Of a stretch of 64,000 nucleotides of DNA, positions 3,143 through 63,400 are shown piece after piece (positions within the stretch are counted from its first letter, which is position 1; every line of letters starts with the position of its first letter). Position numbers and translations under genes: made by a program. The notes under the pieces are model-generated. The model made no database searches. It saw only the letters and a list, made by a program, of their open reading frames with translations, and was not told where the DNA came from. Origin of the DNA: Paraspadella gotoi (Eukaryota; Animalia; Chaetognatha); NCBI GenBank assembly GCA_051294375.1, contig CM119271.1:10667376-10731375 (forward strand). The letters run 5' to 3'.

Positions 3143-3382
3143 AGTGTCTTTTCATAAAATCGAAACATTCTTTGAAATATTATACCACTTCATTGATAGG
3201 GAGCCAGGTTCTCGGGGATTGAGTAAACGATACTGTGAGAAAGTCTTGATTGAAAACTTGCAGGGACCTGCTATGCCATTATCTTGTAAGAATGAGGCCT
3301 TAAACCACCAAAGCCTGTGCAAAGTCAGGGACAAGATAGCTTATTTATTGAATAAATAGATAATTTTTATATTGGTTGTACC
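3143..3382 (+). repeat. Interspersed repeat, copy 1 (homologous to 15161-15405)
   Basis: Near-identical stretches TTCTTTGAAATATTATACCACTTCATTGATAGGG...CTTGATTGAAAACTTGCAGGGACCTGCTATG...GATAATTTTTATATTGGTTGTACC occur at both loci. Confidence 0.9.
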
Positions 3383-6300
3383 TATTAAGTACAGTAAGTG
3401 TAGCCTCAGCTAAAAACTATCTATCTCCATGAAGCCCATGTTCATAACGAATTGATGTTTATTGTAGTATGATGTGTTGTTAAAACCTTCAAAGGCATAA
3501 ATGGTAAGTTCATGTCAAACAATAATAGTTCATTGCAAAGTAGTAACATACTAAGTAGGCTCCATCCGGGGAGTGTAGAAAAACCGATGTTCACTTGTCG
3601 TTCATCTCTCGTCAGCTGGCGATCCCTGGCGTTCACTTAGACTGTACTGACAAATTCTACTCCGTAGTAACGTATTCGACAAAAGATCAGTGTTTATACG
3701 TCGACGCCAAGTATCGCACGCGTACGATCTCTCTTTACACTCCCACCTGTACGTGCTAACGGACAATACAATACAATACTAGAGAGATCGTACACACCGC
3801 TGGACTTCGCCCTGAGGCAGTAGACTTTGCGGCTGCAACTGAGTTCATTCACCACTCCCTTGAAGAGTCACAGGCCCCTCTTGACGATCCCATTGAGGCA
3901 CCCCACTCTGGCGTGAGATCTGCGTCACCCAACTCCCACCACTGGCGCCCTTGTTGACCGTCACCCGGCGTTTCTCAGCATCACCTCCTTGAAGATGACC
4001 GACCGACTTCCCGGCGTCGACGTCAAGCAGCGCCAGTTGACCGACTTAATGATGACCGAGATAGCCGCCGCCGGCGTCGCCTCCCTGACGACGCCTCAAA
4101 CGGCGACTCTGCCTCTTTAGTCCTCTAGCAGTGAATTTTAAACTATTCCGGAGTTTTCTTTTCACTCCAGAATATTTTTGACTCACATCTTTATCCTCTA
4201 GAATGTGAGTTCCAACAAAAAATTTTAGTTTCCCCCTCCAACTTTGTCGGCTGCTCCAGTGCAGTAAGTTAAGGGAGTTCTCCTTGCGTATGAACGTGTC
4301 CTCCTAGACACTTCCTCGTCTTTCTTCGTCTCTTAAGAAGAGCATCATAAACTAAATATTGGCATTTTTTATCAATATTAGAATATTGAGTGTGTGACCA
4401 AGGTAGCCAGATTTGTAAAAAAATGACGTCATAAATCTTTATTTTCATTTCTTTAATCTTGTAGCCCAGCAATGTTTATTCGTCAAACACATGAATTTTT
4501 CTCTTTATCCTTACATTTTACTAAAAGGAGATGTGATCAAACCATAGTGACGAGTTTGTGATAATTCGTTGAACCAAACCGTAGTGTCATGAACTATAAT
4601 TTCATACAGATACTACATACTCATCAATATTCAAAAAACGTCCTTATTCTGAATCGAGAGAAACAGGCAAACCTTATATCTTTAAATGGCAGATTGAAGC
4701 GCATTTGTAGGTGCTCATAAGGCCAGCCCCGGAAGAATTCTCAAGTGAGCGGCATAGTAAACTATGAAAAGCAGCCTTAATGATTGGATCTCCAATAAGA
4801 GAAAGCAAGGGCCAGTTAATACAATCCAGGCATTCCTACACTTTGGCTCAAAATATTTAACATAATTATAAGACTGACACATGTTGTAAAGAAACTTTTG
4901 AATTCATTCGTCATCTGATTTATTCATACATTCATTCTTTCTGTCATTTATTCGTTCATAAGATTTGTCCTCTTACCCAAAAATAGGTAAGAATAAGTAT
5001 AAAAGCTTTAAAGAAATTAATATGAATTATTATTAACATAAACATATCAAAAGAGAATAAATCATCATAAAATTGTAATCGTAAAAGTTAATCTCTTACG
5101 TTTTAAGGTACATGATTTTAGTGGTATAGGGTAAATTCTTGGACATTCTGATCTGTCTTATTTTTTTCAACTTTTGTTGTCATGGAGGCAGGTAATTTAA
5201 AAACTATCCTCAGAATTTTATCTTATCATCAAGTTAATATCATTCACACTTTGAGTCAACCCTCATAAGAAATGTGAAATTGTCTAAATTGATATCTCAA
5301 GTAAAAATTTCATAAGAAAATTTGTTGTCATTTTTTTAAGAATTTTTTTTTTTTTTTAAGAACTTGAACTTTTTTTTGTGATACAATAAGGAGGGAAAAA
5401 ACAACTGATTTGTATTCACCTAAAAAAACATTTTAAGTGATATTTATTTTTAATCGTTATTTCATGTTGAGAAAAGGAAATAATTGAATTATTTTTCTTA
5501 TTTAAAAACTATTATCATCCATTTGAAACTATGGGACAAACCATATATTGTAGGTCTATGATTAGCTGATTCCTATCAATGGTTCAATGAAAGGCAAAGA
5601 CAAGAGGATTAAACGACTTCTGTTGTTTTTTTCTCTTGACATTAAAGAATCCAAAAAGGGTGTTATATTATTATAATGATAGTTTTAGGCGCTGAAGAAA
5701 CATTAAAAAAAACCTTTTCTAATAGTATCATAAACAATCTTTTTTCCGGCTATGCAAGTTGGAAACAGATACGCATCCAAACACTTAGTCCCGTCAGTCC
5801 CGCAGCCATAACTCAATATTTTTAAAATATATATTGTGAGATTTGCCGACTTTTTCTCATGCTAGTGAGGACGAGCGTTTTGAGATTCACCCGCCAAGGA
5901 AAACTTTTATTTGTAGAATGTTTAGTATTTATTAGCTGAAAATCCCTCGGAAACTCATAAAAACGAGGTTTCTCCGGGTGAAATACATTTTGTGAGTTTA
6001 CAATTTAAATCCATTTACCTCGTTAAACTCACTCAGATATCAAGGTTAAAAGTAAAGTTAAAATAAGAGCCAAAAAATGGACCGGTTTTAAATTGACTGA
6101 GAAAGAGAGAAACGAGGCAATATATCTTTCACATATATGAAATTGGTACAACCAATTATATAATTTATATTATTTTATTATTTTATATTATTTATATATG
6201 GTGAAATCTAATCCAGTAACATTATTTAATGTTTTTATTATATATTACATGTAGATACTAAATTTTGATACTGAAATACAATAAAGTTGTATTGATATTA

Positions 6301-14650: not shown

Positions 14651-16294
14651 ATGCCAAACGTTTCTCGATGTTCATCGATGTTGACGACGAAAAAACTTCT
14701 CATTCTCTACGCGTTTTCATCCTTCGTCGCTCTTCTTTATTTGATGATCTGGTGTTCGGCCGACAAGGATCGTTCCAGGAGAATATACGAGGCCAGTTTA
14801 ATGGGTTATACCTTGAGTTTTTTGGTCTGATATTCTTAATTTACAATTTATGAAACATAATTTACAGGCCCAAATCGAACGCGATAGGGAGAGTTTGCAC
14901 GAATCCAAACTCAGTCTCCGAAAACTCGAAATCGAGTTGAGAAAAAAATATCCCCAAGAGTCGCGATCCATACAAGAAAAGGCGGCGACTGAGGTACCAA
15001 TATTATCAGATAAATCTATAGGCAGTTCTAGACTGTTAAATAACATTAAATGAATGGATAATTTTTATATTGGTTGTACCAATTTCATAAAATTCAGCTC
15101 CTTGTATTTTGATGCTAGTGCGGAGTACAATAAGTATTCCCCGATCTAATACTTAAGGGAGTGGTCTTTTCATACAATTTAAACCTTCTTTGAAATATTA
15201 TACCACTTCATTGATAGGGAAGCCAGGTACTCTGGGAGTGAATAAACGAGACTGTGAAAGAGTCTTGATTGAAAACTTGCAGGGACCTGCTATGTAATTA
15301 TCTTGTAAGAGTGATGGAGGCCTTAAACCACCAAAGCCTGTCCAAAGTCAGGGGCAAGATAGCTTATTTATTAAATGAATGGATAATTTTTATATTGGTT
15401 GTACCAATTTCATATTGAGGCGATCAAATCGACAAAAAATTAATCTACAAAAGCCCGCCGTTATCATTTTCTTATACCATCTTATACCATTCTCAATCTT
15501 ATACCATTCCCCTATTTTCTTAGCTGCCATGGATCTACGCCATCACCCCCACCTACAAACGGCTCGTCCAGAAGGCGGAACTGACCCGCCTCTCCCAAAC
15601 TCTCGTCCACCTCCCCAAATTCCACTGGATCGTCGTTGAGGACGCCGAGGAAACGAGCGCCCTCGTCGCCGATCTCCTCGCCTCATCCGGCATTGTCTTC
15701 ACTCACCTCCACGCCACCACCCCGCCAGATTATAAACTGGAAACCAATCAGCCCAACTGGTTCAAGCCCCGCGGCGTGCTGCAGCGGAATCGCGGGTTGG
15801 CCTGGCTCCGCGCCAACCGATTCCCGTGGCGCGACGATGGCGTCGTCTATTTTCTCGACGACGACAACACCTACGACCTTCGTCTCTTCGAGGAAATGCG
15901 CTCCGTCGATCGAGTCGGCGTCTGGCCCGTCGGCCTCGTCGGCGCCCTTCTCTACGAGGCGCCGATCGTCGGCGTCGACGGCGGCGTCGTTGGATGGCAC
16001 TCGGGATGGAAACCCGAGGAAAGGCCGTTCGCTATGGACATGGCCGGGTTCGCCGTCAGGCTCAAACTCATCTTTCTCTTTCCCGACGCGGTCTTTGGGC
16101 TGAGGGTCAAGAGGGGATATCAAGAAGGGTCACTGTTGGCCAAGATGAACGTGAGCCTGGCCGATCTCGAACCAAAGGCCAACAACTGCACCGAGGTCCT
16201 CGTCTGGCACACGCGAACGGAGAAGCCGGAGATGAAGATGGAGAGAAAGTATCAGCGGTTGGGGAAAGGGTCGAGGATGGATGTCGTCGTTTGA
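14651..16294 (+). CDS. GT43 beta-1,3-glucuronyltransferase (B3GAT/GlcAT family); 3 exons
   Basis: N-terminal type II TM segment, then LPWIYAITPTYKRLVQKAELTRL, VYFLDDDNTYD, RPFAMDMAGFAV and LEPKANNCTEVLVWHTRTEKP. The paralogue (B3GAT1/2/3) cannot be resolved by eye. Confidence 0.93.
15045..15414 (+). repeat. Interspersed repeat, copy 2, bounded by 45-bp direct repeats, in a B3GAT intron
   Basis: ATTAAATGAATGGATAATTTTTATATTGGTTGTACCAATTTCATA at 15045-15089 and 15370-15414. The interior matches 3143-3382. Confidence 0.88.
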
Positions 16295-21354: not shown

Positions 21355-25355
<4,001 letters not shown>

Positions 25356-31689: not shown

Positions 31690-34600
31690 ATGAGTTTCTC
31701 CGGCGTCGCATTCGAGAATTTCTCGGTGACGGCGAGGGACGACGCGTTGGCGACGCAGCGCACCGCCGCCCTTCCAAGCTCCTCCCCCTCCTCTTCCTCC
31801 GCAACCAGCGGCGTCATGAATAGAATCGGCAGCAGGGGCGCCGCGTCGCCGCCTTCCTCCAACGGTCGGATCCCCGTCCTGCAGCGGCTCGGCGGTCCGC
31901 CGCGGATGGAGACGTCGTGGTCTCGATCGATGCACGATGATAGACAACCGAGACATCGTGACAGGTTGTTGTTGTTGATGGCGATGATGTTGATGATGAT
32001 CATGATGATTAATTATTTTAAAAATCCCTCGATTTTATTTATTTATTTATCTTATTATATTGATGAAAACAAATATTACTACAATTCTCTAAAAAATTTT
32101 TTTCCTTAGTACAAAATGAGCGTATGACCACGCTTTTAAACTAAAGGTTTACATGGTAACAATTTGAAAACCGGCCCCTAGTAAAAAGCTGCCATTTGCA
32201 AACGCGTAGTGATTTTATTAATTAATATCGATAACAAATATTAAATTTCTCTTGCAGGGGACGAGGCGGAGTGCCCTCCGGTCATTGGCGAGGCGGAAAT
32301 CGTGGCGCCCCTGGCGGATATCGCAATCAGCGCGGTGGTCCACGTGGCGGACCCCGTGGCGGAGGCGGCGGCTACGGCGGCTACGGAGGACATGGCGGCC
32401 GAGGATCGTATCGTCCAAGGTTGCAGTTTTACAGGCGGTTGGATTTTTTGTCGGACAGAGAGCAACTTAACTTTTTGAGGGGTGGGGAAGGGGGAATGAA
32501 AAAATTTTTAAAAAACGTCATTGACATAAAAGATATCCGTTTTTTTGTGGTCCAAAATTTAGTTCAAAATATTTTTTAAAAAAATATTGCCAACAACCTT
32601 ATGCGAGTAATTCCCTTTCCTAACGGTTGGCTCTAAAATTCTCGTCAAACTCTTATCTCATCTTCGCCCCCAATGTTTGATCCGATCTCGCGCCAGGGGT
32701 AATTATCACCGACGGAACGATCAGAACTTCCGGGGAGACGGAGACGTCGCCATGAATCCGTCCGAGGATTCCCGAAGGAGGCCCATCGCGCAATATCGCG
32801 GCAGGGAAGATCGGAGGTGAGGAAAGAGAGTTGGCTCGGCTTCATCGTCGAACCCTTTCGATATTCTTAATTCCCTCTCCTTATCCCGATGATTCCCTTG
32901 TATCGGAATAATTGTAGCGACCCGACTTGACAATTGTTTTGAATATAAAAAAATAACGGGGTCGGTTTGCTCAAACTGAATTCGTCCCTTAAATTTTTAT
33001 TTATTTGTACAATATTTAGATTTTATTTTTTCCCTGTCGCTTCGTTAATATCATTATCGATGTCATTACGCGACATTTCAGGGACTTTTTTAGGTAAATT
33101 ATTTTACTTTATAAAATTATTTCTTTGTTTTATTTCTTTCTTTTCGTTGATTTTCGAAGCATTAAAGGAAAAAGTTTTAATTTTTGTTTCAACAACGAAT
33201 GTAATTAGCATGAAAAGCGTATATGTTTCGGCTATATTGTTAGCATTCATCTGCGCAAAATTTGATTTAAAATTCTTTCAGATTTTTTGCCAAAAAGTGA
33301 TTTTGCGCTGATGTAGGCTAACAATATAGCCGAAACATGTCCGTTTTTCACGTTAATTACATTCGTTGTTGAAAAAAAAAAAATAAAAACTTTTTCCCTT
33401 TAAAATTATTTCTCTAATCATTATACTTATATTATCTCTCAAAATTGTTTTCCCTTCTCAACCTCAGAAGCGGTCATGACAACGCGGAGAAATGGTTTAA
33501 AGTTCGAATTCGCAACACGAGAGGGAAAATGTGGGAGAAAACGGAACTCCTCAAGATCCTCGCCGAGGGCGTGGCCACGCCCTTTAACGCCTTCAGCTAC
33601 GTGGAAGAAGAGAACAGCATCTGCTTTTGGGTGGAGGGAGTCTCGCTGGCCGGTGCGTTTATAATACGAGAGAACTTGATTTATGTGTTCAGTAGTTTAT
33701 ACTAGGAGCGGACATTTTTTTATTCAATAATCGTAGATAGTTAACTAATTAATATCTGGATTAAGTGATCTATATAGTACGTTATATAGAAGTGCCGAAT
33801 CTGTCTTAATACGAAGATAAAAATGTTTCGGTTTGATTTTATTCCGAAAAAAATGAAAATATTGAAGAGACAGTAATTATTGTTATGTGTTAGTGACAGA
33901 ACCGTTCAATATAAGCAGTCCCTGAGCTTCGGATCAGGCTGTAACACCCTGTTACAGGCGGGTTAAGCGCCCCGTCCCTCTTAACTGCCAGACGACCACC
34001 GGGCTAGAACCCCGGACCTTTGGGTTGGGAGGCGAATGACTTGCCTCCGGCACCAATGGCCGCTGATGAACGGTTGGTGGATTTTAGTCCACCATAATAT
34101 GTATTTTTTTTTATTTTCGCTCTCAGATTCTTTTCGCGCGGTCCAAAATCGGTTGACGATGCCCGACAACACGAAAATTCCCATTAACGTCATCCCTTTC
34201 CACGAATCTCCGCCCGTTAATCTGGAAGATGCGAACGTCATTGACGCTATGAAGACGGTAATTCAAGATCATCAATTGTCTATAAGAAATCTATTTGCTA
34301 CAAAAAATAGAACCACAAAAATATCAATTTTTTTTCACTTTCCACTTCTTCCTGTGTAGGCGTTAAACAATCGTTATCAGCTGGACGTAGGATCCTTGGA
34401 ATTAGCCGATTTTGATAAAGACGAAGCATTTCTATCTCAGGTGCGGAAAATATTTGTTTGTTTTTTTTTTTGGTTTGTTTTTTTTTTTCAAAATTGTCCA
34501 GAAGTCCTAACCGAAATATATATATTTTTTTAAATTAGGGTTACTATCTTCCTTTGAACAATCCTCGCGTTTTGGACGCCTTGACGAAAATCATTAAGGC

Positions 34601-36145
34601 GGTTCAAGTCCAAGTCAAAGCTTTGAGTCTTCGCAACAACCGACTCGTCGTTCTTGATCACGTCGCCAGATCTTTCAAAGGTGAGACAATAGACTTAGTA
34701 TTTTTATGTCTAAGAATGTCATTTATTAGCTAAAATTCAAATTAGGTGGGGGAACGAAAAACGCTGATTTAAAAAGTTTTTCTCTTCTCAACCAACCCCT
34801 CCTTCAGGCGCGGATTCCTCCATCGAGGTCCTCCATCTCGGCGACAACCGAATTCGCGGCCTCAACGAACTCGAGAAGATCAAATCCTGGCCTCTCAAGA
34901 TGCTCCACTTGGAGGGGAACAACTTCGGTCGCGGAGCCAAGACCGATCGGGAATCCTTCATCGAAACCATCCGCCGCATCTTCCCGCGCCTCGAGAGGCT
35001 CGACGAAGAGGAGATGCCGAAGGCGATCGGCTTCGCCTTGGAGAACGAGGCCGTCAACAAGGCTCTCCCGTTGGCCAAGAGATTTTTCTACGCTTCGGAA
35101 GAACCCAAGCGACTTATCTCTCAGGTTTGGTTAATTGTCTAAAGTCTTAATAAATAGTAATTTGGTTTGTCCTTGATTTCGAATGTGGTGTGAGGGATGA
35201 TTGCTATTTTTGTTACTCGATATAGGCCCTATAAGTTTCGTCTAAGTAATAAGCACCCTATATTATAGGGTGCTTATTACTTAGACGAAACTTATCTTTA
35301 ATCTTGTTATCGTTCTGTTCGCTCCCTACAGTTTCTGCAAGTTTACTTTGATTTATACGACAAAGACAAGCAGCAGCTTCTGCCCGCTTATCATTCGACG
35401 GCGGTCTTCTCCCTTTCCGCCGCCTACAACAAAGCCGTCCCCGGGAAACAATCACCGTTCGACGAGTACTTCAAGGGCAAAAGCAGGAATCTTATGAGAT
35501 CGGGTAAGTGAAAGGGGGGGAAGGTGTGTTAACGTCGTTCTTTCTCTTGAGGTGATGATAAACTCTTTGTCGTTTTCAGTCGCTCCCCCCATCGCCTTGA
35601 AATCCTGCCCGCTCGACATTTTGGCTTTTCTCAACGGACTCCCCAAGACGCAACACGATCCCAACTCTTTCACCATCGACACCGGATTCGTTTCCGCGTC
35701 GCTCATGACCTTCGTCGTCACGGGTAAATTATGACTTAAAATTAATATTAATTTTGATTATTATTAATATTAATCCCCCTTTTTCAGGCGTCTTCCGCGA
35801 GGAGGTCGAACCTTCCTCTTCTTACTCTTCGGACGACTCGTGGACTCTTCGTTCCTTCTCTCGATCTTTCGTCACGATCCCTATCGGCACCGGTGAGTTG
35901 GAAAGGTTTTTCAGGGGATCCTAAGATCGTAAGAATTCGAATATAACTTTATTTCATAAAACGAGTCCCTTTATTTTCCGCACAAGTCTTTATTTACAAG
36001 AAGGTAAAAATGATACAAGAAAATATCGCGAGAAACCATTCGGGCCGACGTCTCGCTTTCAACCAAAGTTCGATCTTTCCCTCTCCGCCCTCGGCCCATC
36101 GAACGTCCCTCCCCTTTCACCCAGTCCCGCTTCCGCTATCGTGAT

Positions 36146-39361: not shown

Positions 39362-42300
39362 ATGCCCGGCTTGAACACCGCCGTCGCTCCCGTCAGCGAC
39401 CGGGTCAGCTTTCCCCCTCACCCCACCGCATCGCTACCCGTCTATATGTCCTTGTCGCTGGAGACGGAGGCTCAAATGAACAAGGTAAGTTTCATCATCT
39501 CAATGTTTTACATTATTAACTTATTCAAAAATTATCAATGACTCAATGATTCAGGTACTCAACGAATTCGTGCTCAGCGACGACACATTGAAGAAGATCA
39601 TGGCCTTGATGAACAACGAGATGGACAAGGGCTTAGACCCGGCGACTCACGAGGAGGTCAGTTGTGAAACAATGGGGAGAAGTCACATTTCCAAAAGAAA
39701 GATATAAACTTGGCCGAATTAAGATATACTTAGAACCGACAAAAATTTTCCCGAGAAAGTCTCTAACCACGGTTAGATTTTAGGAGGATTAGTTTTTCGT
39801 TAATCTGGGTTGTTTTTGAGGAGGAATATTGGTTAATCTTTCCCCTTTTTGAGGAGGAATATTGCTTAATCTTTCCCCTTTTTGAGGAGGAATATTGCTT
39901 CATCTTTCCCCCTTTTTTCTCAGGCGGACATCAAAATGTTTCCGACTTTCGTCCGTTCGGTTCCGGACGGAAGCGAACACGGAGATTTCTTGGCTCTGGA
40001 TCTGGGCGGGACCAACTTTCGAGTCCTTTGGGTCCACATACCCGAAGAGGACTCCGGTGAGTTCGAGCTCAAATTTATATTGAGTTTCATTTAATATATT
40101 TACATTCATATATACAATAAGCCGGTTCAAATTCTCATCAGTACAAACTTTAGTTTTTTCAAAAGGCTTTAATATCATAATCTCTTTTACTTGCAAGATT
40201 CTAAATACCAAAAATAACAAAAGTGCATCGATTGTATCAGAAAAATCTATTCAATAGATGGAGTTTTTTTTAAAGTGAAAAGTTATGGCCTGACAATGTC
40301 AAAAAATTTAATATATATATATATGTATATATGTACCAATTTCTTAAAACCTCTATCTCTACCCTCCCTTGAAAAGGTTCGACGGAGAAGCAAGAGATTA
40401 AAATGAAATCTCGCATCGTCGTCATCCCGGTGAAGCTGATGAAAGGCCCCGGCGAAGACCTCTTCGATCACATCGTCAAGGGGCTCGCCTCTTTTATGGA
40501 GAAGGAGAAGCTCATAGGTCTGTCGACGACCTTCAGAAAGAAAAATAAAAGGGTCAACCACTAATATTTTTTCATTTATTCTCAAAAAAGGAAAATCCCT
40601 GCCTTTGGGATTCACCTTTTCGTTCCCGGTGAAGCAAGAAGGTCTGGACAGGGGACGTCTGGTCACCTGGACGAAAGGCTTCACCTGCGGCGGCGTCGTT
40701 GGTGAAGATGTCGTTGGACTCCTGCACGAGGCCATCCAGCGTCACGCCAAAGCCGTGGAGGTCGTTCTTTTCTTTTGAATCATTGATTCATTGATTGATT
40801 GTTTCCATTTAGCGATTAATACAATTTTAAGCAAATGCCCAATGATTGGTTTCTATTGGTATATTGCTAAAATAGTTTGTGTTACTTCTTATTATTAAAT
40901 TTTTCAAAATCTTTATTAATTATCATTCTTAATTTTTCATCGTGAACGTCAATTACTATACTATTGCGTATTGACAAAATTAAATTTAAAATTTGAATCT
41001 ATGAAATGACCTGGGTACTTAATTCGCGTTGAATTAACGCCAGAACGACTATATGCAAAAGAGATTCACGAACTCTTATCATTTTCCAGCGAATAAAGAG
41101 TCTATCTCTTATATACAGGCTCATCGTGGGATCGAAAACGTGAAATGCGTCGCTATCGTAAACGATACGACGGGGACTCTCATGGCGTGCGCCCATAAGT
41201 GAGTAATCCATCTTAAAATAAGCTCAGCGAAAAGTCTTAACGCAATTCGTTAAATCTACTCGTAACGAAATGTTTCTCTTGGTTGCTCCCGCAGAAATCC
41301 CAGGTGCCTGGTCGGTTTGATCTTGGGAACGGGATCCAACGCTTGCTACGTTGAAAAGTTGGACAAAGTGAAAACGTGGACTGGGGACAAAGATCCTCCG
41401 GACGAAGTGAGCCCGGAAAACGGGAGAATAAAATATATATATTATATTAGTTATAATCGCGATCCTTCGAAAAAAACCCGCAGGTGCTTATCAACACGGA
41501 ATGGGGGGCTTTCGGCAACGGCGGTTGTCTCGAATTCATTCAGACGGAATTCGACAAAGACGTGGACGCTCATTCTCCGAACGCGAGACAACAAATTTTC
41601 GAAAAGATGATATCCGGGATGTACATGGGGGAGATCGTGCGACTCGTCATGTGCAAGTTAGTATTTAAGGAGAAACGCTTCATCGTTGAAATCATTCATA
41701 ATTCGTCGAGAATATTACGTAAAATTTGACGAATGATTTACACTAATTAATATGCACTATTAATCATGAGAAATCTAAATATGCAACTACTTAAAAAGCA
41801 TAACACAAAAACAAATGAAGAATTTGGATAATACAAATACAAATAGAAATGAAGAATTTGGATAATCATTTACGAACGTCTTTTTTCTTGCGCAGATTAT
41901 TCGCAAAAGGAGTTTTGTTTTCCCACCATCGCGACTCGAAGACGCAGTTTTTCGTTCCCGAAAGTCCGACGACGTCAGGAGCGCCGACCCCAGGAGCGCT
42001 TGCGCCGGGATCGTCCGAAACCAAATTAGCGGAGCCAGAAATGCTGAATTGGGGCAACAAAGGAACCTTTTTTACAAAATACATTTCCGAAATAGAAGGG
42101 TAAGAGATGGGGGGGGGGGAGAGCTGTCGTTGCAATTTTTTTTTCTGTAGTCCAGATATAGCGTGATACTTTGTAGTATATTAGACTGAAAGAACGGTAG
42201 TCGCGGGTTGACTAGTTTCACTCTTAATTAAGTTTAAAAATGTATATTTGATTTTTGCGGAGATTAATTTTAAAAAGTGTTTGTATTCAGGGCGAATCCC

Positions 42301-44627: not shown

Positions 44628-47600
44628 ATGGTGTTGCCGTCGTCCTCGACCAACGCCCCCCGCTCTTCTTCCTCTTCCTCCTCCAAGCTGCTCGTCGTCC
44701 TCGCCCTCCTCGAGGGGCGCCACTTTCCGCGACGCCCGCGCCACCGCCTCCTCGTCGAGGCGCGCTTCGACGCCGAACTCCTCGCTTCTGATCCCGTCGC
44801 CCACTCGGAGTCGCCCACCATCTCGCAAGAGCTGGCCTGGCAGTTGGACAAGAAGTCGCTGAGGCAGCATCGACTGCAGAAGACCTCCATCAAGGTCACG
44901 CTCTTCGCCGTCGATGCCGACTCCTCCTCCGCCAAGGAGCAGGTGGAGAAGGGAGGAGGGGTGGTTGTTAGACTCTGAGAGTTTGATTCGTTTGGAGAGG
45001 ATAGAAGCGTCAGTGTATATTCAAATTGTCAATAAAATGTTTTTTTATTAAATGTTATTTTTCCGTTGAGGTGGGCTACTTGGTGATCCCTCTTCGTTCC
45101 GCCGGGCCGCGACCCGCGCCGCAATGGCACAGCCTCCTCTCCTCCAAATACTCGTTAAAGACGAAACCGGAAATTCGCGTCGGCGTCTACGTCGATGACG
45201 CCGACGCTACCGCCGCCACTTCCGGCGCGGACACGCAATCCTCAGCTTTTCCATCCGGCCTTGGGGAAACGACGGGGCCGAGTTATAAAGGTAGTTCACA
45301 TTACGCTTCACATTTTACTTGGCCCGGTCCCGCTTTATTACCCGCTATTATTCTGTCCAAAGATGGCTTATTTATTAAATTAATGCATAATTTTATCTTG
45401 GTTGTATGTACCAATTTTCTATTGAAAAAATACAGAATAGATAATTTAATATTTGTTGGGCATATTGCCTGAGATAAGAGAAGTATGTTCTTAAGTACCA
45501 AGAGATTCAATAGAAAATAGTAATAACAAACTTGCAATCTTTTAAAAAGATTCGACGGCTTCGGGTTTCCTCTCTTCCTCGCTGACGCCGACTCTCGACG
45601 AAGACGAAGGCTGGTATTCGATCGGACCCAAAGACGATCCCCGCAACAGAACTTTTCTCTTTTCCATCACCGTCGCCTTTGCCGCCAACTTGGTTCATCT
45701 CTTGCCTTCCAGTTGGTTTTCCGCGTGAAAGATCTGAATTGCGTGAGAATGTGAATTGTGATGGGTTCTTCTCCCGCGCTTTTTTTTATCAATATTTGTA
45801 TTTTTATGATAAACATTTTTTTTTCACGAACGAGTTACGATTATCGATCCCCCCCTTCCCTACTTTCCGCCAGACGTTCTGCCTCGAGATCCGGATTCGC
45901 CTCGCGGTTTCTTCTTCTTTTATTCTCTCTTCGGAAATTCCGTGACGACCGATCCTTTCCCAGATGCCGCCGATCCAGACTTTCCCAGTAAAAAAAACAA
46001 TGCCACGTTCATTTTTTTAGGGGGAAAAGTTTTTGCTTTATATTGCATGTTAAAAAAACTAAACTTAAGTAATGAAAAATAATTACGATAAGTAATTTAA
46101 TTGAACGAGCGTTAATTAAGAATGTAATGTGAACGATCGCCCGAATTGTGATAATTTATCGTTGAAAATAATTGGGGAAAAAAAATCCTCTCGGTGAAGC
46201 GAAGTTTTTTCCTCAAATTTGATGTCGTTAGGTTAAGTCGGACATCAAAATTGTATTAATTTTAAAAGAAATTACATCAACGTGTACGTGTAAATGAGTT
46301 TAAAGAATTTCCTTCTCATCATTTTTTTTCCCTCTTTCCCGCCAGCGGAACGCGCGTCCGTCCGCATCCGCTGCAGCATCGATCGCCTCCGCTCCTTTTT
46401 CCGCGCGCAACCTGGCATCGAGGTTCATCTCTGCTACGGCGCGCAGTCGCTGGGGAAAGCCTCGTTGCCCTTCGGAGGTCTCGTGGCCGGAAACGAGGCG
46501 GAGCTGTTCATGCAGGTGTCGCTGGTGTCATTTGTCGTATTTTCGCTCCGATTTCCTTATCTTCCCTTATTTTTTTCCGACAGCCGGTCAACATCGAAGA
46601 GACTTACCGAATCACTCCGCATCCAACCGTCGCCAAGACGGCGGCGCAAAGAGATGACTTTCCCATGGTGAGTCGGGGAAGATCGGGGGAAGAGTTTCCG
46701 GAGTGAATGAAGATTGATTACAATTTCCGGAGTGAATGAATATTAATGCATGATTACAATTTCTAAATGTAAACTGAAATTTGTTCCATCTCAGGTGGGC
46801 GTCGCCCTCTCCCTCAAATTGGACGAAAGACCAGACCCAAGTTCAATCACGAGGGCAGCGGGGGAGGCCGACGACGCGGAAGGAGTTTCTTCCGCCGCGG
46901 CGGCGGGGCCGGAGACGGAGGCGCGACCGAATATTTCCGGCGCCGAGAAACGAGAAGCGAGCGCCATCACTCTCGACGACACGGCGGATCGGCCCCCGGA
47001 GAAGGTCGCCCCACAAGGTGATTGAATATTAATGACAAGAAATGTAGTTTTGATTATATTTTTTTTAAAAATACTATTTCATTATAGGAGACGAGTCCGT
47101 GTTGTTCCTTCGTGAAGGACGAAAAGAGGGAACGGTGGATCTCGACGCCGGCGGCGACAGCGTTCGAATCTGCGGCGTCGGGCATTCCACGACGCCGACG
47201 CCCGGTTAGAATCGTACTAATTGAGTCCTAAAATTAGTAATTATTAATTAATATAGAGATGTAATTAGCTTACTCCTTTATTACCGAACGGCAGGAGTCG
47301 TTGGTCCGGGCGGGGATTCGGCGTCGCCTACCAAAGAGACGCCGCAGTCCGTTTCCTCTCGACGTCCGAAGATCCCGAAGTCACAGGATCCGCCTCCACT
47401 TCCTCCGCCGACTCTGCCGACGTTTTTGCCGACGCAACCCAAACAGGTCTTTTGATATGTCGAATTTATAAATTAGTCTCGTTTTGTGAGAGGGGTTTAA
47501 TAGACTCATTTGCATACATTCGTGTCGGCTTTGTGTCACCATGAATTTAGTACTTATGTCATTCAAGGGGTCTCCAATTGTCGATTCACGCGCGTTTTTA

Positions 47601-50432
47601 GTATATTAATTAATGATAATGATTGATTCAGAGTTTGGGACATTTAGCAATATTTACTATCAATAATTGATATTAGGTTTAAAATCGTATTTTCAATTTA
47701 GATCGTCGAGTCTGTGAAAACGCCGCCATCCGTCCCACCTTCCTCCCATCATTTCTCCTGCAGCGTCGATCTTCGATCTTTCCACGATTTGAAAACGTTG
47801 CTGACGAAAGATTCTTATCTTTTCTTTCGTTATCATTACCCCTTTTTCGGTTTCTCCGAAGCCATTCACATCTTTCCCGCCATCAAGGTAAATGGTCAAC
47901 TCTTTTAGTTGACATCATTGGAGCGACTTAACGATCCGATCTTTCCTTTATCTCAGCCGACTCCCTTCACCGACACGATGATACCCAACGGTTTTTGCGC
48001 TTTCGACTTCGCCTCTCCGCTCCCTCAATTGGAACACACGTTTCATAATCAACCGTTCATGCTGGAACTGTGGGGTCGATCCGCGGCCAGGTGAGAGAAG
48101 AGAGAATCAAGTTAATGGAGAAACGAAAAAATCAACGCCACACTCTCCCACCACCTTTGACAGCGGTCACCCGAATGCCCCGCAAATAGTCGATCCACGA
48201 TCGGACGCTCTTTTGGGCGTGGCCAAGCTTCCCCTCCTCCCCTTGTTGCAATCCCCCACCACCATCATCTCCCACGCCGCCGAGGTCAAGCGTCGGAGTT
48301 TCAACGCCAAAATCCCCGTCGTCTCCATCCCTACGTCCGCCGAGAGTCAGACACCGCCTCTGGGTGAAGTCGCCGTCTTCCTCTGCCTCGACGACCTCGG
48401 GTTCTTCCGACCGCCGGAGCCGCCGACGCCGCCGGCACCGGCACCGAAGACGGCGGACGCGGCGACGGCGACTTCCGACGCCGAACGGGAAACGCGTCCG
48501 GCGGCGAGAGAGACCCCGGAATACAAGGCGGCGCTGGAGCTGGAATTGTGGAAGGAGACGCAGAAGGAGGCGTTCGAGGAAAGTTTGAAGAGAAAGGAGC
48601 AGGAGCATTTGCAGGTTCGTTTGGTGAAAGGGAATGGGGTGTCGTTTTTAACATGTGTGGTCCTTGCATGTGGTCATCTTTCGACAGGCCATTTCGGAAG
48701 AGTACAAACGACGAGAGCGAGAACGCGAGCTGACGATGCGGAAACGAATCGCGGATTATTCCGAGTTGGAGACGCGATTGCGAGAGACGCTGGCGGATTT
48801 GGAAGCGAGGCAAAAGACTCTTCTACAGGCGGAGAAGGAGGCGGAGAAGTTCAAAGAGGAGGCGAAGCGAGAGCATCAGGCTCGACTGGTGGAGGTGGAG
48901 GCTGTTGCCAGGAGAAAGGCCGAGGATTTCGAGCATAAGGTCTTTTTTTTTTGTGGATGTTAATCTCGCTGGATGTCGATTTAGCAGTTGAGCTTTATTA
49001 AATTTATTGTTAAAACAACAGATAGCGTTGGAGAAGAAAAACTCGAAAGGTTTGGAGGATCAAATAAAGAGGTTGCAAGGGGATTTGGTTGAAGCCGGAC
49101 GGAAACTAGAAACGTCGGACAAAGCGTTGGAATCGCTGAAACTGTCGCAACAGCAACAACCGGAGGTCGTGTTGCAGAGAGAAGTGAACAAATTGACGGC
49201 GGAGATTAGCCAGTTGGAGAAAAAGCTCGAGGCCGGTGAGTGGGTCGTCGGTTTGGCCGTGGGCGGTGCGGTTCCGGTGGGCTGTTTGTATTTGATTTTC
49301 GTCCTTTATTTTGTCAGCTGCCAAGTCCAAGGCTCACTACAAACAGCAGTGGGGTCGCGCGTTGAAGGAATTGGCGAGATTCAAGCAGAAAGAAGCGGAA
49401 GGAGCGAAAGAGCGATTGAGGATACAGGAGCACGAGTTGGAGCATCTGAGGTGAGTTGGAGCAACGGAGGTGAGTTTTCGGTTTGACTCGTAACGGGGGG
49501 GAAGGAAAAGGGAATGAGTGGCGCGGGGAAGGGAGTTGGAAATTATCAAATTGGTACAATAAATTTCAAAATTATCCATTTTTTTATTAAACAAGCTTTG
49601 GTAGTTGGGCTCCTGTCTTTGAAATGGCTATGGTGCGTGATTGCATCAAGGTCATCGTGTCAAAAAAAGCTTTCCGTTGGGAATACATTCGAACAAAGTT
49701 AACTTTTTTGCGAATCATACATGATCTGAATAGTGAACCGAGGTGATCGGTAGAAATTTTAATGATTAAGGAGTTGAATCTGGTTTAATGCTTGTGTAAG
49801 TTTAAATGATTTAATTATGGGGTAAAATAAGTACTAATTGCTGGTACAACAGAAGAAATGAGCTTGCAGTAGTGACCGACACAAGATCAAGAAAATCTTG
49901 TGACAGATCGCAGAGAAATAATGGCCGAAAAAAAGAAGGGGGGGGTTTAAAAGAGTGCTAGGGGAAGATTCCTGTCGCAACACGTTTTCCTTTAATTTTC
50001 ATCATCTTGTGCGGCAATGAATGAAAACCAAACTTATTCCAAAGGCTTCGCTACCTCGTCGCCGAGGAAAGAGGCGTGTCCAACGCCGAACACCGGCAGA
50101 TGCAAGACTTGAAGGAGGAAATCGCGGCGCTCAAACTCGCCAACCAACGTTTTCTTCCCGTCGATCCAAACTTCGCGCGTGGCACCCGCGTCGAAAACGA
50201 CGGCAACAACAACAACGACAACGAGGAAAGCAACAAGAACCGAATTGTCGCGGATTCGCCGATGACCGTCGACGAAGACATCGCTCGTCTCGTCGAGGAG
50301 AGAGACGCGTTGCTTCAAACCGGCGTCTACTCTGACGGAGACAGAGTCATTCGCGATCTCGATCGTCGAATAAAGGAGAAAATGGCGCGAGGGATGACGT
50401 CGCGGAATCCGTTGACGTCGCTGGTCACGTGA
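44628..50432 (+). CDS. CEP120: Centrosomal protein of 120 kDa (C2 domains + coiled coil); multi-exon
   Basis: [100 protein letters not shown] and [16 protein letters not shown]. Confidence 0.94.
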
Positions 50433-60405: not shown

Positions 60406-63400
60406 ATGACCAGAGAGTTTCTCTCGTCGTCGTCGTCCTTGGTTCTCCTTCTTCTCAAACTTCTCCTCCGCGTCGAGGCCAATCACTTGGAGCAGTTCTT
60501 CACGATTCCCGAAGGCTCCGCCGCGCGGCTCGAGTGCTACAGGTACTCCCGTTTCCGGGTTTGTTGGGTCGTTGGCATCTCGGAAGAGAAGTTGGGGATC
60601 GTTTTTTTTTGTTGTAGATTATTCGTAATATTTCATCAACTTTACCATTTCCACCGAAGCTCCAAACCCAACGTGGTCTGGAAGAAAGCCTACGCGTCTC
60701 GCACGCAATCGGAGACGCTGTCCCGCAATGGCGTCCGCGCGGCGCCGGGCTACGACCGCGTTCTCTTCGAGCGCGAGCGGATCGAGACGGACGGCGTCGG
60801 GATGCGCGGCGTCAACGGCGCCCCGCCCGGCAACGCCCGATACAAATACGTGATGAAGCTTAAGTCCGTCGGGCTTGAGGACAGCGGTCTCTACACGTGC
60901 GACAACGTCTACAGGTTTACATCGTGTTATGTATTGTATTGTAATATATTGTAATGCAATGTTTCTCATTAATGATTTTCCAACAGGAATGATATATTCA
61001 TTTTCCAAGATGGTATAAGCTTTAAAAATATCCGCGAGCGATTGAACGCTGAAAAGCGTCTTTGTTTCCTCTCTTTTCTTCCATTCATTTATTTCAAATT
61101 CCCCCCTCCAGTTACTTCGTCTCCATCGTGACGGAGCCTTCCTGCCAGCCCATCATCGCCCTCATGAACGGCCCCCTGGTGGAGGGCGAAGTGACGCGGT
61201 TCGAGTGCGTCGCCGAAGTCAGCAGCGCCAGCCGCATCGATCCCCGGATGCGGTTCGGCGGCGACACCCTCACCGACGCCATCTCCATGGGCACCAAGTC
61301 CTCCAACGTCTACTTATCTTGGGTCATCGGGGACAAAACGTTGAAGACGAGTCAGGTGAGGAAATGGGGGAATTTTTTTTTTTTATTAGGATTGGGGGTT
61401 TGACAAAAAGGTAAGTTTGGCTTGGAGAGACGAATAGATCTGATTGGGGTTTGACAAAAAGGTAAGTTTGGCTTGGAGAGACGAATAGATCTGATTGGGG
61501 TTTGACAAAAAGGTAAGTTTGGCTTGGAGAGACGAATGGATCTGACCTCGCTCTTTGTTTTCCACCGACAAGGCCGACGACATGACCGAAATCAACGGCG
61601 GAGTGACCTCGAAGAAGCTCAGCCTAAGCCTGGCTTACGTGGCCGACGGAGACGACCATGCCAAGGCGCTCAAGTGCGTCCTCCACTCTGACGCCTGGAA
61701 GCGGAACAAGGCTTGGGAGTCGGGAGAAGGAGTGGGGGTGATGGCGCCCACCTGTCGGGTCGGGGTCCTCAACGTCGCCTTCGGACCCAAACTCGACTGC
61801 AACAAGACTCAGGTTTGGTTGACAAATGGGTTGTAGAGATTTAATTATCTAGAGGGAGGCTTCAGCTTGTGAATGATCGCTCTTTCAACGAAAACGTCCG
61901 TATTTTATACCTTCAAATATATTGAATTGTTCTCTCCTTTTCCTCCTCTTTTCTTCCTTTTTCTTTTTCCTATACTCTTCTTTTCTTTCCTCTTCTTTTA
62001 TTTCCCTTTGCTCCGCATTTCACTTTCTTTCCTCCTCATTTCCTTTCCCCTCTTCTCTCCCTTCATTTTCCCCTATTCCCCCACCCCCGCCAAAAAAAAA
62101 AGATTTTCCTCGACGGATCCCCCGCCTACAACCTGGCCTGCGACGTCCGCGCCAACCCTCTCCCTCCAACGGAGTCGGTCAAGTGGCGCGTGCTCGGCGT
62201 CGGGCTGGATCACCCCTTCCCCGGCCAAATCACCCACAAGAGAGACTTTAGGATGAAGGCCGTCGTCGACGTTAAGCCTTTGATGCAGAGCCTCTTCAGG
62301 ACCTCGCAATCTTTCAGCCTCACCGTCAACAGCTCCTTGAGAATATCTACGCAAAAGGCGAGTACAAAGAGTCGAGATGTTTCGATGATTGTGACTGTGA
62401 GTGTGATCGGTGATTTAGTGAAACCTGTTTCATACGTTGGCAATAGGGCTTGTATGCCTAGCTTCGTTAGCCCTTTCGCCATCAATGAAACGGGTCCTGG
62501 CCACGCTCTGATGGATAGCGGATAGCCTTCCGAAGGGTAGTTACCGGGTTGGGATTGAACGCCAGCTGGCTTCACTCAATGAGCCTCAGTCACAACAGAA
62601 GGAACGATGTCTTTAGGCGGAATGAACCTGATGAATGGGCAATGCCCCAGTTGCCCACTATACAGTGACTGAGTGACTTAAAAATTTCTTTCTCTCACGT
62701 ATTCAACCAGACGATCGAAGCGCGAGTGAAGAAAAGCGTGGGCGTGGTGTGCAGCAGCCGGAAGCGAATCACCACGCCCCTTACCTATTTGGTGATGTGC
62801 GTCGTCAACGCGGGAACGCGACTCACCCGGAATCACGTCAGGTGGAAATACGAAGGTGAGGTCTATTGGATTTTATTGACTTAGTAGTTATGTTTCATAT
62901 CTAATACATTTACGCATATATTTTTGTATTTCAGATCGTAGCGACATTCCCGACTCGAAGGTGGAGTATTACTCGTCTCCGCCCGCGTCTGGTGCCATTT
63001 TAAACGTGAGCGAAGCGGAGGGGAGCGTCTTCTTCATCCTCATGGGGGTCGGCCCGCTTCGAGATCTTCGACAGGTTGGTCCAGTTTTTTCGTAGTAACT
63101 TATGATCTTGCATATTTTAGAATTCCACGAATAATTTGATACTGGTATAATATGCAATTGTAATAACGACGAGTTCCTTTACTTTTATTTCGGTCATATT
63201 TTGTCGATCCCAAGAAGGTTTTAAAATAAATGATAATAACGATTCGAAAGTTTTAAAGAAACTCCAATCCTCCCAACCCCTTGCCCCCCCCTCCCCCCCC
63301 CCCAACAATCCCGCCCCAGGAGTTCAAGATCGAAGTCCCTGCAGTCCGCGACGGACTCTTCTCCTCTTGGGCGAGCCTCGCCGCGGAGACGGTCTACTTC

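Follow-up and report, generated by a model that had tools for sequence, protein, structure and literature searches.

The stretch analysed here comprises 64,000 nucleotides from Paraspadella gotoi contig CM119271.1 (the whole stretch is called the window, and positions count from its first letter). The window carries the gene NXF1 on the plus strand, identified by its Pfam domains Tap-RNA_bind and LRR_NXF1-5. An intron in the part of NXF1 that codes for the RNA recognition motif (RRM) holds, on the minus strand, a 234-bp repeat unit in which a tRNA-like module is followed after three bases by a predicted twister, a self-cleaving ribozyme. A preliminary description, made from the letters of the window, had placed this cassette inside an NXF1 intron; the placement holds, with the correction that the cassette lies antisense to the gene. 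The unit is very probably a long terminal repeat (LTR). We give a probability of about 0.5 to the reading in which RNA polymerase III (Pol III) would start at the tRNA-like module, the twister would cut each LTR, and the resulting RNA would be circularized and copied by a Ty3/gypsy helper. The locus has the following features.

33653..34126, plus strand: host intron, 474 nt, in the RRM-coding part of NXF1 (Pfam, splice joint, GT..AG intron ends)
33863..34096, minus strand: whole repeat unit, 234 bp, 5'-TA...CA-3'; likely the solo LTR of a Helenus-type terminal-repeat retrotransposon in miniature (TRIM)
33859..33862, no strand: left copy of an ATAT target-site duplication (sequence)
34097..34100, no strand: right copy of the ATAT target-site duplication (sequence)
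33863..33899, minus strand: AT-rich 3' segment with the CA end, likely the end of U5; most copy-variable part of the unit (5 of the 11 common non-CpG variants)

Extent, abundance and class of the repeat unit

Parts of the stretch were present in 11 of 15 sequencing runs, and nine runs, all from organism A, contained at least half of its words. In the contigs of runs X1, X4 and X5, peaks of loose ends at 33863 and 34096 defined the edges of the unit. Run X1 placed 19,337 contigs on the stretch; among the rows listed, 147 of them ended at 33863 (64, 39 and 42 at nearby places) and 120 at 34096 (56 at 34097). Runs X4 and X5 reproduced both edges, and outside them the flanking sequence of the X1 contigs varied from copy to copy. 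An abundant repeat with sharp edges and differing flanks is what the preliminary description had anticipated as a mobile, multicopy family, but the extent it gave, 33900-34075, is replaced by 33863-34096 on the evidence of the contig ends.

The summed X1 depth was 4-5.9 million on the unit versus 220-235 on its flanks. The raw ratio of the two, 1.9-2.7 x 10^4, does not equal a copy number, as overlapping contigs inflate it. The family likely counts thousands of copies, of the order of 10^4 at most. We treated X4 as RNA because the NXF1 intron was spliced out in this run (joint 33651>34126, depth 268.5). The unit depth in X4 was 266-401 times that of the NXF1 exons, in contigs that carry neither strand nor ends and that, for many unit contigs, sit inside other transcripts. 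Across the unit in X1, 60 of 81 variant places were C>T or G>A, an excess that suggests methylation-type decay and a young family.

Head-to-tail joints of the unit had a period of 238 in two X1 contigs among the matches listed; this period equals 234 + 4, which agrees with a 4-bp target duplication. X4 contained one such joint, partial. A 5-bp duplication, AATAT, would fit if the unit ended at 34095; the family edge, however, is at 34096. T and A at -7 and -6 in the consensus of 7 of 8 left-edge rows had suggested a 7-bp duplication led by TA; we dropped this reading and prefer a target of alternating A and T, duplicated over 4 bp.

The 64-kb window contained no second copy of the unit and, elsewhere, no motif linked to the unit that resembles a primer-binding site (PBS) or a polypurine tract (PPT). 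No transposon open reading frame (ORF) was seen by eye among the long ORFs of the window, seven of which were covered by a Pfam scan. Runs X14 and X15, from other organisms, placed no contigs on the unit, which proves no absence. Two low-depth contigs of run X10 (organism B) and one of run X11, a biofilm metagenome, matched the left part of the unit (33863-33979), likely through contamination or trace DNA. These 2 + 1 contigs were too thin a basis for a spread to other species, an idea that we abandoned.

The 5' half of the unit has the following parts, given together with the 3' clamp arm.

33991..34063, minus strand: tRNA-Gly(CCC)-like module with a degenerate A box at ~34056-34046 and a GGTTC B box at 34012-34008 (ARAGORN, 80%)
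34063-34057/33998-33992, minus strand: acceptor-like stem, 7 bp including two G.U pairs (sequence)
34015-33999, minus strand: T-arm (sequence; pair probability 0.04)
34067..34075, minus strand: 5' arm of a 9-bp clamp (9/9 Watson-Crick pairs)
33900..33908, minus strand: 3' arm of the clamp, pairing with 34075-34067
34075..34094, minus strand: 5'-terminal hairpin of 7 bp, preceding the tRNA module (pair probabilities 0.5-1.0)

The tRNA-like module, the parts in twister order and the 9-bp clamp of the preliminary description were thus all confirmed at their minus-strand positions. As a tRNA gene, the module fared less well. ARAGORN made no call by default or at its 100% and 90% thresholds and reported a tRNA-Gly(CCC)-like sequence only at 80%, where a second, overlapping call of the program ran over the twister region; Rfam gave no tRNA match. 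Box A has CGG and box B has GGTTC, with TRGCY matched in part only. Family variants at 33992 (66%) and 33995 (22%) convert both G.U pairs of the acceptor-like stem to G-C. Judged by its sequence, the module is likely a Pol III promoter rather than a working tRNA. The unit begins 33 nt upstream of it, and no TTT occurs on the sense strand of the whole 234 bp. On the minus strand, the first letters of the 5'-terminal hairpin are TGG and its last are CCA, which makes its arms similar to a PBS and to the 3' end of a tRNA.

In run X5, contigs cover the unit and leave the single-copy flanks bare, which means that most junction contigs of this run derive from repeated junctions. Their consensus over 27 contigs at the 3' edge has TGG one base past the final CA. 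Over 30 contigs at the 5' edge, it has a purine tract of 10 bases, six of them G, that stops two bases short of the unit. The X1 edges have the same few nearest letters. In place and orientation on the minus strand, these signals match a PBS and a PPT. The 4-bp duplication, the fixed edges and these junction letters are the grounds for reading the unit as an LTR, likely the solo LTR of a Helenus-type TRIM, that is, of an LTR element with a tRNA promoter, and not as a short interspersed element (SINE).

The predicted twister and its competing fold

The downstream part of the cassette contains the following elements, all on the minus strand.

33915..33988: type-P5 twister fold (P5, P2', GA, T1', a 6-nt linker replacing P1, UAA, P2, T2, P3, P4) (descriptor match)
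33988-33984/33919-33915: P5 (sequence)
33976-33975: catalytic GA (sequence)
33974-33972: T1' CGG, pairing with the loop CCG at 33932-33930
33965-33963: UAA, with the cut placed after U (sequence)
33959-33958: T2 GC (sequence)
Inside 33915..33988: P3 of 8 bp, and P4 of 5 bp with loop UCCGAAGC (sequence)
33964..33965: predicted self-cleavage site between U33965 and A33964 (homology to the twister consensus, PMC5408937, PMC8501958)
33958..33976: competing decoy hairpin, 33976-33971 with 33962-33958, cut site in its 8-nt loop (pair probability ~0.96)

The conserved core is complete and complementary, with GA, the UAA site, L4 UNNNAAGC, T1, T2 and P4. A twister descriptor, composed post hoc with the motif already known, had a single match on both strands of the 64-kb window, namely the cassette. 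Locally matched Markov controls yielded 0.017 P5-order matches per window (60 replicates), and in 150 control replicates the full descriptor had no chance match and the loose descriptor had one. With folding z-scores of -2.2 (cassette) and -1.2 (twister), both modest, neither strand stood out. The preliminary description had called the CCG/CGG pair a compensatory change. This stands relative to the usual twister consensus only. It had also named the short, bulged P2 as a reason why the window copy may be inactive; the 3-nt strand is a family trait, with no indel row there, and not decay of this copy.

A scan of sequence collections for the family gave seven viral and six metagenome matches, none with the element, and we read them as chance; two exact family motifs had no match in the genome contig and viral contig collections. 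One metagenome match (L011:601-643, minus strand) shares the CCG loop and has a P3-like hairpin as well as a CGG close by, with no preceding GA, and is probably also due to chance.

For comparison with natural twisters, we used at least 145 phage loci retrieved with three patterns (at least 128, 9 and 8), which excluded the G-C swap found in T1. Among the matches listed, 76 unique loci parsed as twisters, 11 of them of type P5. Six of these 11 have a 3-nt P2 strand. Rfam passed 5 of 20 phage loci tested, including three with a 3-nt P2 strand, and missed all five of the clear P1/P3-order twisters among the 20; because of these misses, a blank Rfam result on the cassette is weak evidence. The type-P5 phage twisters that pass Rfam with a 3-nt P2 strand are L146, L148 and L152; a review describes P2 of twister as four pairs (PMC5408937; the papers cited in this text were available in part, and what we say of them refers to the available parts). 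According to the same review, P1 can be deleted in vitro in another twister topology. Variation among copies counts in favor of the predicted structure as a whole: among the variants listed, which are not independent, 1 of 11 common non-CpG variants breaks a predicted pair versus 49% of positions being structured (p ~0.006).

Proposed mechanism and alternatives

The retrozyme-like character attributed to the cassette at the outset is borne out, and the steps of the proposed cycle can be laid out as follows. Full-length copies would consist of LTR, PBS, a short internal part, PPT and LTR. In the 5' LTR, Pol III would initiate at the tRNA module and read through, because the usual oligo-T is absent. 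The twister would cut once per LTR and release a unit RNA running from cut to cut. The decoy hairpin would then hold the two cut ends side by side for a tRNA ligase and shield the circle from recutting. Finally, a Ty3/gypsy helper, primed by a tRNA at the PBS, would copy round the circle and integrate the product, giving rise to full-length copies and solo LTRs. In its most complete form, to which we assign somewhat less than an even chance, this would be an animal LTR retrozyme: a Pol III TRIM in which a twister replaces both terminator and R region. Its RNA would change over from the fold that cuts to a hairpin suited to ligation, and would spread as a small circle with the help of a gypsy element.

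Several observations weigh against this reading. Neither complete copies nor their internal sequence could be seen in the contig-level data, nor a helper, a Pol III start, a cleavage end or a circle, and a T-run in the internal part could stop Pol III. The PBS- and PPT-like letters come from consensus cells with an agreement of 0.40-0.53 and are weak or absent in X4, and no tRNA in the available PBS figure of the Helenus paper (PMC10886601) matches the PBS-like letters beyond six bases. Rfam lent the proposed twister no backing: at the gathering score it had no match in the 64-kb window, including to type-P5 RF02684, and at E<=10 it returned five weak matches in 1 kb and three in 83 nt, none to a twister or a tRNA. 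P1, described as essentially absent from the start, amounts to 1 G.U pair versus 5-8 bp in 11/11 natural type-P5 twisters, and P2 has two contiguous pairs and one across a bulge versus 3-4 contiguous pairs in 11/11. The review relays a suggestion that the active site may be disturbed when P2 changes in length (PMC5408937). In folding models, which used the window copy and omit pseudoknots, the decoy hairpin lay 9.5 kcal/mol below the two-dimensional twister fold, pseudoknot energy excluded. Leaving the minimum free energy fold for the two-dimensional twister fold cost 11.6 kcal/mol (9.5 under other constraints) versus 2.5-7.1 for natural type-P5 twisters. Finally, the sparing of the twister alone was not significant (p 0.18), and CpG-type changes strike T1 at 3-13%. 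Among the P1/P3 parses, 7 of 65 also cost at least 9.5 kcal/mol, some of them perhaps being false parses. Activity of the predicted twister is doubtful on these grounds, and the decoy hairpin may mark either a dead ribozyme or a switch that favors ligation and protects the circle.

These features lead to the first alternative, a Helenus-type TRIM with a twister that survives as an inactive relic or is locked by the decoy, with RNA ends set by ordinary termination and strand transfer through an R region. The blank Rfam search, the 1-bp P1, the two contiguous P2 pairs and a decoy 9.5-11.6 kcal/mol more stable are what such a relic should display, and in a young family the motif would appear intact with or without selection. 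However, core nucleotides, both pseudoknot pairings, P3, P4 and P5 all co-occur, the LTR offers no T-run for ending a Pol III RNA, and Rfam is blank on clear twisters too. We regard a relic as unlikely, though as the likeliest of the alternatives.

The same TRIM might instead carry an active twister that cuts mainly the 3' LTR and substitutes for a terminator, leaving a linear RNA with an R region of ~100 nt (tRNA module plus 27 nt). The twister occupies the position of the oligo-T in the published Helenus LTRs, and weak cleavage would spare many 5' ends. For the whole LTR, which includes the clamp, the predicted probability of P5 was 1.0; for the transcript from the tRNA start, which lacks it, the value was 0.39, a weak hint from the models that the clamp may favor the ribozyme of the 3' LTR. 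Yet P5 also reached 1.0 in the nascent RNA of the 5' LTR, before the 3' clamp arm exists, and the decoy formed in both contexts, in a model that omits pseudoknots. This possibility seems to us rather unlikely. Invasion of the cut site by a free clamp arm, a further idea, received no support from folding.

An improbable alternative is a parasite other than an LTR element, be it a tRNA SINE, a tandem element like Sm-alpha of Schistosoma, or a retrozyme-like unit mobilized by Penelope. A tRNA-like module adjoins a ribozyme in Sm-alpha as well (PMC6765202), the targets are AT-rich, and rare head-to-tail joints exist. However, among the matches listed those joints amount to two X1 contigs and a partial one in X4, the unit being monomeric in the window. 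Both edges are sharp, with a 4-bp duplication, and neither of them falls on the start of the tRNA module or on the cut site. The SINE identity favored by the preliminary description is not sustained: the 5' end lies 33 nt above the tRNA head, where a SINE2 element would begin, and the 3' end is CA with no A-rich or simple-repeat tail. The PBS- and PPT-like junctions are foreign to the animal non-LTR retrozymes as described in PMC7761336.

A non-autonomous DNA element (Helentron/HINE-like or Dada-like) with a captured RNA cassette, whose 9-bp repeats and terminal hairpin would be transposase signals, is very improbable: its plus strand does show a 9-bp subterminal repeat and then a hairpin 2 bp from the end, reminiscent of Helentron ends, but the duplication is 4 bp, the other repeat arm stands 37 bp from its end, and the PBS- and PPT-like junctions have the correct orientation for the minus strand.

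Genomic setting and comparison with known systems

The NXF1 copy of the unit is likely a passenger, because it is antisense to the gene, has no PBS or PPT alongside and sits in an intron that is spliced. A link to the retained NXF1 intron that contains a constitutive transport element (CTE) was ruled out: the retained intron lies later in the gene than 33653-34126, and the insert is antisense. Other repeats occur nearby. An upstream NXF1 intron contains an imperfect 240-bp palindrome (33162-33403, arms 80% identical) that resembles a foldback or miniature inverted-repeat transposable element (MITE) insertion, and a later one contains a near-perfect 65-bp palindrome (35231-35295). A second interspersed family of ~245 bp is present at 3146-3386 and 15164-15409 (90% identity), with shorter matches at 15045-15089, 45360-45425 and 49532-49635 that share a common end, like 5'-truncated retroelements. 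Short tandem arrays at 24585-25014, 39813-39916 and 61390-61545 are built, judged by eye, of units close to 53, 33 and 52 bp.

The closest animal relatives in organization are the Helenus elements, with a tRNA-like LTR, PBS, PPT, 4-bp target-site duplication and dependence on gypsy (PMC10886601). The unit likewise has tRNA-like box A and box B sequences inside it and a 4-bp duplication, ATAT, at the window copy, and several wasp Helenus LTRs also run TA...CA, as seen in the available part of the supplement. The published LTRs, judged by eye, have a T-run after the tRNA module, whereas the unit has a twister and no TTT. The arthropod members of Helenus are restricted to parasitoid wasps, and the relatives of the host's RNF185 give no close link to wasps: the nearest named ones are from amphipods, mites and beetles (57-60% identity), and unnamed ones reach 60-64%. 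The Helenus paper contains no mention of the word twister. In its supplement of 108,717 characters, 12 twister-loop 8-mers gave four matches, none twister-like by eye, although line breaks or loop variants could conceal some. The preliminary description had not recognized the combination it saw; tRNA-bearing LTR elements were already described as Helenus, and the twister is what is new. Cassandra TRIMs offer a second parallel, with a Pol III small-RNA promoter within the LTR of a miniature LTR element, but they are 5S-derived plant elements in which termination defines the RNA ends, with a redundancy of 18 nt, and the available text describes no ribozyme in them (PMC10886601).

As for the ribozyme, the window copy shares with type-P5 twisters (RF02684) the order of elements, the catalytic GA, the U/AA site, the T1 and T2 pairings, the UNNNAAGC loop, P3 and P5, and differs by having no model match, a 1-bp P1, a broken P2, a G-C swap in T1 and a strong decoy. 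In Schistosoma mansoni, twister T-variants are tied to the RTE retrotransposon Perere-3 (PMC8501958). There too a retrotransposon twister has a weak or missing P1, but it lies 5'-terminally in an autonomous non-LTR element and begins at the cut site, whereas the window twister is internal and circularly permuted in an LTR-like unit. The 5' end of RTE non-LTR elements is the only retrotransposon role of a twister in the available parts of the literature searched. In that literature, outside which most subscription papers and Repbase reports lie, neither a twister-bearing LTR or TRIM nor an LTR retrozyme from an animal came up. A twister that is circularly permuted, P1-less and missed by Rfam suggests that more may hide in transposable-element libraries.

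Ribozyme-bearing LTR elements have so far been described, in the texts available, as plant elements based on the hammerhead. Animal retrozymes are described without LTRs, PBS or PPT (PMC7761336; bioRxiv 10.64898/2026.07.22.740005; PMC7229834), and the bioRxiv report mentions neither twister nor tRNA. In the plant LTR retrozymes, each LTR carries a ribozyme, and a cut-to-cut RNA without R region is circularized and copied, with a gypsy helper in the model (PMC4918200). Like them, the present element would be a non-coding LTR element with a predicted self-cleaving motif per LTR, a putative PBS and PPT, 4-bp duplications and solo LTRs. The plant elements differ in their type III hammerhead, LTRs of 300-400 bp, absence of a tRNA-type module in the available text, and circles shown by experiment, the window element being known from sequence. 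Rfam found no hammerhead in the window, and the motif being of twister type, the element may work like an LTR retrozyme while falling outside the definition of that family. If the ribozyme is dead, the element represents a new family of Helenus type that has captured a relic, which is of modest significance. The element offers a direct test of how RNA ends are set in Pol III LTR elements. If the ribozyme is active, the element unites two strategies described separately, those of Pol III TRIMs and of retrozymes, and the cut-and-circularize route known from plants can arise in animals with a different ribozyme.

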